Part shown: piece after piece, positions 9,481-20,000 of the stretch
How the letters are laid out: each line of letters opens with the position of its first letter
How positions within the stretch are numbered: position 1 is the stretch's first letter
Source: Chiloscyllium plagiosum
Lineage: Eukaryota
NCBI RefSeq assembly: GCF_004010195.1
Contig: NC_057757.1
Coordinates: 7,195,722-7,215,721 of the forward strand
DNA length: 20,000 nt
Direction of reading: 5' to 3'
Made by a program: the position numbers and the translations under genes
Notes under the pieces: generated by a model
Told to the model about the DNA's origin: nothing
The model's database searches: none
What the model saw: the letters and a program-made list of their open reading frames with translations, nothing else

Positions 9481-9899
9481 TAGATAGTATTTGAAAGTAG
9501 CAAGCATGTTCTGAAACAGGAAGCTATGAAGAAATCAAACATTTGTAATTTTGCTGTTAATCATAAAGTGTTAGTGTTGCCTCCAGTGAATGGTGAACCT
9601 TTAAAGACAAGATTTATCGAGTCGATAGGAAATTAACTGAAATTAAATCTGACATTTTATAAGAATGTTAGATAGAATGATATCTCACAGAGTGTGTTGT
9701 GTGAATAAGCTCAAAAGGTATTTTTAGAGGGAAGGAAAGCAAAAGGAGAATGTGTTACAGTTTATAACATGGTGAAGAACCAAGTTTAGAGGATTCTGAA
9801 TTGGACATTCCTCTAATTAAATCGAACAATGAGGAAGCTCTCAAAATTGGGCTACATTATTGAGTTACTTTTCAGAGGAAAATCTAAATGACCTGAAAG

Positions 9900-10666
9900 C
9901 ACTGCAGCACAGACAAACTTCGGAAAACAGAGGAGAACCACCTATATAACGTATTCAAGAAGAACAGATACTCAAATAATATAATGTGCAGATTCCTCAA
10001 GAACAAACCACGACAAGCAGACCAAACACAGCCAGAAGCCCTAACCACCTTATCATACATCAAAGAAGTTTCAGAAATGACAGCCAGACTACTAAGACCC
10101 CTCGGAATCCTAGTAGCACACAAACCCACCAACACTCTCAAACAAAAACTAACAAACTTAAAAGACCCAGTACAACCCAAGGACAAAACCAACGTCATCT
10201 ACAAAATTCCATGCAAGGACTGCCACAAACACTACTTAGGACAAACAGGAAGAAAGTTAGCCACCAGGATACACGAACACCAACTAGCTGCAAAAAGACA
10301 TGACCCTCTCTCCCTCGTAGCCCTACACAGGGATGAAAAAAACCACCATTTCGACTGGGACAACACATCTATCCTGGGACAGGCTAAGCAAAGACATGCC
10401 AGAGAATTCCTAGAGGCCTGGCACTCCAACCACAGCGCCATAAACAAACGCATAGATCTAGATGCCATCTATTAACCCCTCAGAAAACGAACAGGAAATG
10501 ACATCACCACAAACCCCAGGAACCCCATCCAGGAGAAAGATATAAATAGAAAGCAGGAGACAACAGCTTCACTTCACTTGGAGGTCACCACTGATGATGT
10601 TACCTAGCCAGGTAATGAAACGTCTGGATATCAAACCTACAGCTCAGCGAGCAAACCTACACCCTA
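9900..10666 (+). mobile_element. 5'-truncated Penelope-like retroelement (end of RT/linker, GIY-YIG endonuclease, terminal repeat)
   Basis: Frame is open from 9900 and includes NVIYKIPCKDCHKHYLGQTGRKLATRIHEH and REFLEAWHS. Flanked by GACCTGAAAG (9890-9899) and GACCCGAAAG (10667-10676), a 10-bp target-site duplication with one mismatch. Confidence 0.93.
10588..10627 (+). ncRNA. Minimal type I hammerhead ribozyme in the Penelope terminal repeat
   Basis: CCA-CTGATGA-T-GTTACCT(AGCC)AGGTAAT-GAAA-C-GTC-TGG: both core boxes, a 7-bp helix II, helix I CCA/TGG and palindromic ACGT in place of helix III. Predicted cleavage is after 10624. Confidence 0.85.
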
Positions 10667-11116
10667 GACCCGAAAGATATTGATTTGTGAGAATAAACTG
10701 GGAAGTCCTAATCTAATTACACATGATGTGGATATAGAAGATACTGTTCCAATAACAACTTTATAGACTTAGCCCTCTAAAGTTGGCAAATGTTCAAAAA
10801 GAGATTGAAAGCATGCTCAAAGACAATATAATTGAAGTGAGTTGAAGTGACTGTAGTCATTGAGCCAAAACCGGATGGTACCCAATGAATATGTGTGGAC
10901 TATTGCAAAGTCAATGCTGTCACAAAATTTGATTCACATCCTATTCCACATTTGGAAGACTGTCTTGAGAAGGTGGGACAAGCAACTTATATTTCTAAGT
11001 TGGACTTCTTCAGAGGATACTGGCAGGTACCTTTATATGAAAGAGCAAAGGAAATCTCAGCTGTCGTGACACGGAATGGACTGTACCTGTTTAAAGTCAT
11101 GCCATTTGATCCTTGG

Positions 11117-11304
11117 GGCAGCATGGACCTGCTTTTGATAACATCGGCAAAGTAGATTTCAGAGGCAAAAATGAAGTGACTCGTTTTGCAGATGAGCAGG
11201 CTGAGACAATGTGGTTGCACTTGTGAAAGACCTGGTGCATGAGCTGCTGGATCAGCAGATTGACAGCTGACATTGTGATCCTTGGCGTTGCTGTTTTCCC
11301 ACTT
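11117..11304 (-). repeat. Unclassified repeat of about 185 bp, copy 2
   Basis: Inverted homologue of 7550-7733; lies within about 10 nt of the point where the Gypsy RT breaks off. Confidence 0.9.
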
Positions 11305-11724: not shown

Positions 11725-12606
11725 CTATTTTTCATTTATAGTAAATACAAACAACCACAGATATTTCACCTCTTCTCTGAATTTGCATTGTATTATTGCA
11801 TAGATGGCGGTGTTGGTACAGCGACCCAGAAGCTGAAGTATGAACCCCATCTCCCGAACGTGCACAGGTAGATACAACCTCGTACCCGAAGTAACCCATT
11901 CTCCAAGAAATACAATAGGTCATATATACTGCCCATAACAATATGAAGTTCCCTGATATAGAGTACAGGATAATTATGGACTTCCTGCAACTCTCCATCT
12001 CAGGGTCACTGGGACACTCCCTACAGCCATGACTCCAGAGTCTGCTGTGGGCTCTGTTAGTCACTAAAATATACCTGATTTTAAAAGCATTGAACAGAAA
12101 GATCGCAATAAATGGAATATATGGTGTCAGCATGTAGTGGAAGAATTCAACAGCACCCCATACTTTTGATTGTGCAACACTTTGTATCACATGACAACAA
12201 AACCAAGATAGATTTGCCAAATTGTATCTACTTGTGTACATAAAGTACCAGAAAATATTTTTCAATAGAAAAGCAGAGCAGTTGTTGCTAGAACCACGGT
12301 CGCTGTTTTTTCCACACGGTATTTAGTTTTCAGCTTCCAGGAACAAATGGCGATATAGCGATCGAATGTGAAACTGACTGTGAACCAGACGAAACAGTCA
12401 GTAACAGTGTAGAGCACAACAGCGTGCATGTTACCCACAGGGATATACAACACAAAACTGAGTTGCAAACGATAAACTGAAGGGATATATTAGATTGAAG
12501 ATAATTATCAGTAGATCCGCTGTTGCCATGGCTACCAGGTAACATGTGACACACTTGGAGAGGTCGCACTTACTCCGAGGCAGGATTACAATTGTTAGCA
12601 TGTTAA
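11725..12606 (-). pseudogene. GPR139/GPR142-like class A GPCR main exon, frameshifted
   Basis: Acceptor ctgtttgcgtccttccag ends at 12607. Reads NMLTIVILPRSKCDLSKCVTCYLVAMATADLL (TM1-2), VWFTVSFTFDRYIAIC (DRY), DPEMESCRKSIIILYSISGNFILLW (TM6) and CTNTAIYAIIQCKFREE (TM7/helix 8). At least three frameshifts (about 12480, 12265 and 11880). Confidence 0.92.
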
Positions 12607-12674
12607 CTGGAAGGACGCAAACAGACAGATTAGAATAAGAAAAAAGACAATGTTGATGGAGTTTTATGAACCGA

Positions 12675-12830
12675 TACAGAGCAGCTGTTTCACCTTGTGG
12701 GGCAATCTAGAAGAAAATGTCACAGTTCGAGGTGAAGGGGCATCAGATTTAAAACAGAAATGAGGAGGAATTACTTCCTTCAAAGGGCTATGAATCTGTT
12801 GAATTCACTACCTCAGATTATGGTGGATCA
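12675..12830 (+). mobile_element. CR1 3' fragment
   Basis: Encodes LFHLVGQSR and RFKTEMRRNYFLQRAMNLLNSLP. Confidence 0.8.
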
Positions 12831-19152: not shown

Positions 19153-19794
19153 CTTTTGCTTTACCTGAAACTTCCCTATTTATAGTATCTGTAATAATCT
19201 TTAGTGTATGACAGGGTGGCCAGGACACTGGTCCAAGTCCAGTTGAAGTGGATTTGAACAGAGTACACACTTCATCACTAAAACCCTACACTCCCATCCC
19301 ATTCCATTCTTTGAACCCATTCTCCATCTACAGCCCATGTCCAAGAATTCAATCCTGGCCAGCCCCTCAGCCTGCGTAGAGACAGGAAGAAGCAGGGGCT
19401 GTTTTGATGTTACATGTTGGGCACTTTTCCCCTGTTCCACATTGACAGAAGTTATGGTGTTCTCTCGTGAAACAGCCTTCATCAAAGTAGCACATCTGGA
19501 CGCCTAGCTGGGGGCATTTATTTTTGCATTTTACAAGCAAGTGCTGAAATCATTAACATGTGCATTAAGGGGAACTGAAAAGGATTTTGAACTGGCCACA
19601 GAGTCAGTCGCAATGTCAAGGGAAATGGGAGGAGGAGGATGAGGCTTTAATGACTGTCCTCAGAAAGTTGGCCACGTGCGAGGGAGTGAGAGGCGGAGAA
19701 GGGGTAAAATATTAATGAGTACATAAAGCCCAGGAAAAGAAGGAGGGATGGAATAAATGGGCCTGAGATAAGGGGATTGACAGGGTGGGTGACG

Positions 19795-20000
19795 GGGAAT
19801 AATGGAGTCAGTGGGAGGAAGTATAATGGGGTCAGTGAGAGCGGGAATAATGGTGCTGGTGATGGGAACAATGGGTTTTTAGAGAGGAGGAATAAAGGGA
19901 TCGGTGAGAGGGCAATAATGGGTTCGGTGAGAGGGACATGATGGGGTCGGTGAGAGGAGTAATGGGGTTGTGAGAGGGAAAAATGGGGTCGTGAGATGGG
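19795..20000. repeat. G-rich minisatellite, unit about 21-25 bp (GGGAATAATGGGGTCGGTGAGA-like), running off the window end
   Basis: About nine diverged units are directly visible. Confidence 0.85.

Follow-up and report, generated by a model that had tools for sequence, protein, structure and literature searches.

A minimal hammerhead motif in a truncated Penelope-like element of Chiloscyllium plagiosum, and a genomic hint of cleavage in its family

The locus

The window, by which we mean the whole 20-kb stretch of Chiloscyllium plagiosum DNA that was analysed, contains a 5′-truncated copy of a Penelope-like element, recognized by its homology to other copies and carrying a minimal hammerhead motif. 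The features of the insertion and of the motif are as follows.

9600–9889 (+): left flank, older host repeat resembling an LTR retrotransposon
9890–9899 (+): target-site duplication, left copy, 10 bp
9900–10666 (+): 5′-truncated Penelope-like element copy (endonuclease end and 3′ pseudo-LTR)
9900–10475 (+): ORF fragment with a GIY-YIG-type endonuclease region, 192-codon frame
10541–10548 (+): TATA-like box, putative promoter
10571–10579 (+): putative RNA start region, about 30 nt past the TATA-like box
10588–10627 (+): minimal hammerhead of type I (CCA/TGG as helix I, CTGATGA core, 7-bp helix II, GTC triplet)
10588–10590 (+): CCA, 5′ arm of helix I, read from the sequence
10591–10597 (+): CTGATGA, core, read from the sequence
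10597–10599 (+): ATG whose letters are A9, the extra U and G10.1
10598 (+): extra T, unpaired, between A9 and 10.1
10599–10605 (+): GTTACCT, 5′ arm of helix II
10606–10609 (+): AGCC
10610–10616 (+): AGGTAAT, 3′ arm of helix II (7 bp, G·U closing pair)
10617–10620 (+): GAAA
10620–10623 (+): ACGT palindrome standing in for helix III (positions 15.2–16.2)
10621–10624 (+): CGTC, with the GTC triplet
10625–10627 (+): TGG, 3′ arm of helix I
10667–10676 (+): target-site duplication, right copy, one mismatch, at a CpG
10677–11155 (+): right flank, the same older host repeat, holding a decayed reverse-transcriptase (RT) fragment (RVT_1, E 3e-6)

The element copy is single-armed, ends without the optional ~35-nt tail and differs from five siblings by 4.4–6.4%; like them, it has drifted at CpG sites. 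Its endonuclease frame is identical at 167 of 185 positions (90%) to the corresponding frame of another copy, L033, where that frame follows a reverse-transcriptase frame. L033 matched RVT_1 (E 3e-12) and, weakly and below the Pfam cutoff, GIY-YIG (E 0.0098); the window's own endonuclease frame had no Pfam match, and its stop at 10473 corresponds to CAA in the copy L073. When the two flanks of the older RT-bearing repeat were compared separately with its relatives, about 25 nt at most separated them in nine of 11, the other two relatives being one with no left-flank match and one interrupted further left.

The first-pass annotation had missed that the motif belongs to a Penelope-like element and to a high-copy repeat. 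In this family the hammerhead is present at the termini of full-length RT-endonuclease copies, such as L046, in which two same-strand hammerheads lie 2,971 bp apart with the RT and endonuclease frames between them; the longer copies that we examined carry stops or shifts in these frames. Two same-strand pairs spaced 3.8–3.9 kb apart were considered as full-length elements and proved to be separate truncated insertions. An inverted partner accompanies 13 of 29 close relatives, none of the 29 has a second same-strand hammerhead within 1.5 kb, and the window's hammerhead site is a single copy with no tandem array. Copies have their 3′ end either at the position matching 10666 or some 35 nt beyond it. 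Endonuclease-bearing Penelope-like elements are described as having pseudo-LTRs, 5′ truncation, inverted 5′ copies and an optional 30–40-nt tail (PMC8557442, text consulted), and all of these were found at the level of the family, as was a single ORF with RT followed by GIY-YIG, the latter domain with the sub-cutoff match given above.

Other features of the window and related motifs

Upstream of the element and on the same strand, a frame at 2870–3060 (+) matches the C-terminal end of lipoxygenases (E 1e-6) and is possibly a last exon or a pseudogene. The broken frames at 11732–12706 (−) presumably resemble a seven-transmembrane receptor; Pfam gave no match in these frames to support that assignment. 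A tRNA-Gln(CTG)-like gene or relic adjoins a repeat arm at 7422–7496 (−), and a degenerate tandem array of 23–24-nt units, about 10 copies, occupies 19783–20000 and continues past the end of the window.

A decayed hammerhead of a sister subfamily lies at 2700–2739 (+), with G12 changed to A and A15.1 to G, on a short stub followed by a Penelope tail. Four more hammerhead-like relics, belonging to other repeat families, were picked out by eye at about 8518 (−), 14884 (−), 17887 (+) and 18217 (+), the last of which keeps the core and ACGT and has lost helix I. Elsewhere in the genome, the loci L032, L037, L070, L094, L123 and L124 point to at least three further minimal-hammerhead families, in one of which GC replaces CG at 15.2–16.2 and the triplet is GUA.

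The hammerhead motif and its fold

Every part of the motif described in the first-pass annotation lies where it was placed, within 10588–10627, and its identification as a minimal hammerhead of type I whose helix III is palindromic is borne out by a descriptor search and by folding. The predicted cut falls between 10624 and 10625. Our descriptor, which demands the core, three base pairs in helix I, three or more in helix II and pairing of 15.2–16.2, matched one site in the window and none of 1000 dinucleotide shuffles. In a 96-nt fold the pair probabilities were 0.86–0.99 for helix II and 0.63–0.74 for helix I; in a 221-nt context those of helix I dropped to about 0.3, so that its formation is context-dependent. 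The best fold of the monomer is an inactive hairpin in which the core bases GAUG pair with CGUC, its folding energy was overall no better than that of shuffled sequences (z 0.17), and an Rfam covariance-model scan returned no hammerhead match at E ≤ 1. Cofolding of two copies, by a method unable to model the helix III of the dimer, produced an intermolecular duplex of helix II that is inactive; the ACGU duplex contributes only about −3 kcal/mol.

Across the subfamilies, 91.5% of the cells in 13 hand-picked, related rows pair. In these rows G-C, C-G and U-A each occur as the outer pair of helix I, and one helix II position is unpaired in six of the 13. The covariation score of the same hand-picked rows was 0.31, versus 0.16 when shuffled and at most 0.12 when slid, and because the 13 rows are related it counts as support and not as a probability.

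Copy number and the G·U pair

A search of the 3.56-Gb genome with the 191 nt around the motif gave 1,583 first-look candidates; the 40 of them that were scored, the window itself included, showed 98–100% identity. The 34-nt core has 1,890 exact copies when C or T is allowed at 10616. Position 10616 and the next base read TG in 1816 core copies, CG in 74 and CA in eight, so that on the full list C stands at 10616 in 82 copies (74 CG and 8 CA). Decay in each copy separately would predict about equal numbers of TG and CA; the T was therefore present already in the amplified element. The G-U pair that the first-pass annotation saw closing helix II is indeed there, but the CpG decay that it offered as the probable cause is wrong for the window copy: judging from the genomic copies, G·U is the amplified subfamily's own state. 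It follows that changing T10616 to C, which had been suggested as a restoration, would not give back the original state of this copy. In three public contig sets of unrecorded kind and bearing three organism labels, C accounts for only 1–3% of depth at 10616, and the true CpG at 10621 shows C-to-T at 3–23% of depth. The sister subfamilies (11,949 matches) mostly have C, which was found in 85 of the first 100 matches listed, and a single ancestral C-to-T change in a master element is therefore plausible on the evidence of these sequences. The T at 10616 also creates a further in-frame ATG (10615–10617), with Met instead of Thr at codon 7.

The consensus pair G10.1-C11.1 of the published class (above 80%, not invariant) is thus represented by G·U in the window copy and in 1816 of the 1890 core copies. 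This does not bar membership in the class, since published members (S. mansoni 1, Clonorchis 1, Xenopus 1 and a cichlid entry) also carry G10.1-U11.1, and the published alignment already contains G·U together with the extra base (PMC4209133, parts consulted). We found no cleavage-rate data for G10.1/U11.1 in the literature searched.

Probable start codon and RNA start

The extra U after A9 noted in the first-pass annotation is present at 10598, and to this we add that it is likely the middle letter of the element's start codon: in copies whose pseudo-LTR continues into the ORF, the ATG at 10597–10599 opens that ORF. The frame from this ATG stays open for 273 codons in L075, 148 in L073 (where the start codon itself is mutated) and 103 in L070, and it stops or shifts sooner in the remaining eight of the 11 copies compared. 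Two other ATGs, at 10594 and 10615, are in the same frame. An ATG at A9-U-G10.1 was present in all 30 sister loci examined, as the search pattern required.

The TATA-like box at 10541–10548, which also precedes many sister-subfamily hammerheads, and the clustering of the 5′ ends of other copies at 10572–10579 (four at 10572, two at 10574, one at 10576 and four at 10579; 11 of 248 pieces, a biased sample) lead us to place the likely RNA start near 10571, both the start and the promoter being deduced from insertion ends. An initiator-like A at 10571 was considered as a family feature and rejected, as most copies have G there.

Insertion junctions at the predicted cut site

If cut RNAs served as templates, the reverse transcriptase would run off at 10625, and this prediction was fixed beforehand. 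Junctions were collected with patterns that force four mismatches upstream of each of three 11-base windows. The upstream control gave 25 matches and, after removal of four indels, 21 junctions; the window with the cut site gave 51 matches and, without five indels and three duplicates, 43 junctions. Among the 67 matches of the downstream control, 36 were dropped by eye as indels from the listing and 31 were examined, of which 10 were removed (five indels, two duplicates and three from another subfamily), leaving 21 junctions.

The window with the cut site thus holds 43 of the 85 junctions, versus 32% expected (P 3e-4), and 10625 alone accounts for eight of its 43, where the controls predict about 1.8 per position (P 9e-4). 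Within its own window, the same eight of 43 versus 9.7% expected is borderline (P 0.04–0.05). The excess is broad, positions 10621–10627 being mostly raised, and the control position 10618 received six of 21 junctions. In the larger sister G-C subfamily, which gave 131 matches of which 100 were listed and the first 80 examined, 72 junctions were left after removal of five indels and three duplicates; 19 of the 72 begin at the equivalent of 10625, versus 9.7% expected (P 4e-5), two of the 19 coming from one palindromic locus. Five of these 19 are fold-backs through a palindrome that begins at that very base, and at least two of the rows counted as flank may be missed short fold-backs. The upstream control of the sister subfamily had 296 matches, of whose first 100 about 22 were true junctions by eye, which gives a ratio near 2.

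When only junctions with host flank or microhomology of at most 1 nt were counted in the sister subfamily, 11 of 45 fell at the cut-site base (P 0.003); in the window's subfamily, seven of 33 with microhomology of at most 1 nt fell at 10625, and the pooled low-microhomology junctions of both subfamilies gave 18 of 78 (P 4e-4). The excess in the window's subfamily amounts to about 13–22 insertions among more than 1,890. We regard it as a modest, reproducible hint of cleavage in vivo, to which stalling or microhomology is a live rival. We found no genomic count of this kind at a Penelope hammerhead cut site in the literature searched, on which supplements beyond that search could bear.

One sister-subfamily copy, L300 (G000:C17:1792668-1793202), carries a run of some nine additional T precisely where the cut is predicted; this single case could reflect slippage or the tailing of cut RNA before rejoining.

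Does the hammerhead cut?

A minimal hammerhead is an ordinary motif for such a genome, and the question at stake is whether Penelope hammerheads cut in cells; their function has been called unclear (PMC8557442, text consulted). In the parts of the published reports available to us, a member from S. mansoni did not cleave as a monomer and cleaved at a low level as a dimer or trimer (PMC4209133), one of nine Xenopus dimer elements cleaved (bioRxiv 10.64898/2026.07.22.740005, a 2026 preprint), and the hammerhead of the anole Poseidon element cut only with protein, insertion in vitro not needing it (PMC11167929). The statement in the first-pass annotation that such minimal hammerheads cleave efficiently as dimers is, in light of the low dimer activity and the one active element in nine in these sources, overstated. 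That annotation also ranked the motif as the best candidate for a self-cleaving RNA, and it is the only intact minimal hammerhead in the window; the copy itself is likely inert. No second copy of its subfamily was found in the 20 kb of the window, and the nearest relative there, at 2701, has a broken core.

We hold with good confidence that the motif is the minimal hammerhead of a Penelope-like retrotransposon, located in its 3′ pseudo-LTR, and that the copy at hand, being solitary and 5′-truncated, probably has little cleavage activity or none. In an active element the RNA would start some 17 nt ahead of helix I; reverse transcription would begin about 40 or 75 nt past the cut site and normally run through the uncut hammerhead, copying being independent of cutting. 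Indeed, cutting would not be required for copying, because every copy that spans the site came from uncut or rejoined RNA. Cleavage would need either a partner hammerhead, with helix III formed as ACGU:ACGU, or the element's protein, and would occur in a small share of the RNAs. A cut after 10624 would take off the first ~54 nt, and since the cap and all three in-frame ATGs (10594, 10597 and 10615) would be lost, it would silence the RNA and not mature it. Such cut RNAs as were still copied would leave insertions beginning at 10625, and these are over-represented. For the wider proposal that Penelope minimal hammerheads cut in the germ line, that roughly 1% or fewer of the insertions in two subfamilies, the G·U subfamily included, stem from ribozyme-made 5′ ends, and that the ribozyme is an mRNA off-switch, we see an even chance.

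It is rather unlikely, in our view, that the family hammerhead never cuts in cells, being kept for its overlap with the promoter, the start codon and a protein-binding region, with the junction excess arising from RT stalling or microhomology joins. Such a history would suit the at least 1,890 copies that span the site intact, the wide spread of the G·U variant and the overlap of the hammerhead core with an ATG. It also fits the RNA data. In poly(A) single-cell RNA of the family (340 reads of run X21, labelled as another organism, not from the window locus, a library type poorly suited to the purpose), ends did not pile up and depth was steady over the site, and the anole RNA-seq likewise had no RNA ends at the cut site (PMC11167929, text consulted). 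A further run, X22, yielded no family reads. Nearby palindromes do raise the counts, at 10627 in the window's subfamily and at TGCA in the sister. Against this stands a peak that in both subfamilies falls on the position predicted beforehand (8/43 and 19/72) and stays there when microhomology is at most 1 nt (7/33 and 11/45). Stalling at the base of helix I, as judged from the predicted fold, would place the peak at 10628 and not at 10625, and the helix I pairs covary across the subfamilies.

That the window copy itself makes an active self-cleaving RNA, whether by transcription from the TATA box it carries and dimerization with family transcripts or by co-option to end a host transcript, appears improbable. 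It retains the core, the TATA-like box and both helices intact, and the family RNA in run X21 makes partners in trans conceivable; but besides the missing subfamily partner in the 20 kb, the broken core at 2701 and the weak ACGU duplex, no X21 read reached into the flanks of the locus, and the copy sits within another decayed repeat and shows the same CpG drift as its siblings. Coincidental resemblance to a short consensus, for which one could cite the missing Rfam match and the unremarkable folding energy, is refuted by the 1,890 core copies, the presence of the motif at the termini of full-length copies and the 0/1000 shuffles; the position and sequence moreover fit the published Penelope hammerheads and their consensus (PMC4209133, parts consulted), and we attach next to no probability to it.

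If ribozyme-made 5′ ends do underlie the excess, junction counts would be a genome-only assay of ribozyme activity: since any assembly allows insertions that start at the scissile bond to be tallied, cutting in cells would be open to testing in different families and core variants by computation alone.

Comparison with known systems

Non-LTR retrozymes, reported in one cartilaginous fish, contain a type I hammerhead derived from Penelope pseudo-LTRs, as here (bioRxiv 10.64898/2026.07.22.740005, text consulted). They are, however, non-coding tandem repeats, whereas the window copy stands alone and is joined to an endonuclease frame; with no tandem array, it was rejected as a retrozyme.

The Poseidon element of the green anole, PAc (Frangieh et al., 2024, PMC11167929), resembles the window element in layout only. 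According to the text examined, its ORF starts at hammerhead stem II, as in the window family, the cut site lies 26 nt past the ORF start (28 in the window family), and both have two 3′ ends (with and without a tail) as well as a GIY-YIG at the C terminus. PAc is a functionally tested element whereas the window element is a truncated copy, and the text examined reports no genomic junction excess for it.

The closest counterparts are the min-HHR of metazoan Penelope-like elements (Cervera and De la Peña, 2014, PMC4209133). The parts consulted contain no junction analysis in the text, no cartilaginous-fish entry in the supplementary alignment and no match to 'shark' in the two supplements searched. 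They share with the window motif the CUGANGA core, the extra base after A9, a long helix II, a short helix I and the palindromic 15.2–16.2, and with its family the prevalence of lone copies in 5′-truncated elements and the inverted partners. The window motif has the CUGANGA, GAAA and NUH triplet of the class, an unpaired base between A9 and 10.1, a helix II of 7 bp, a helix I of 3 bp and no helix III loop, and it lies in the pseudo-LTR of an element with RT and GIY-YIG. The window hammerhead is an additional member of this class, which was published in 2014.
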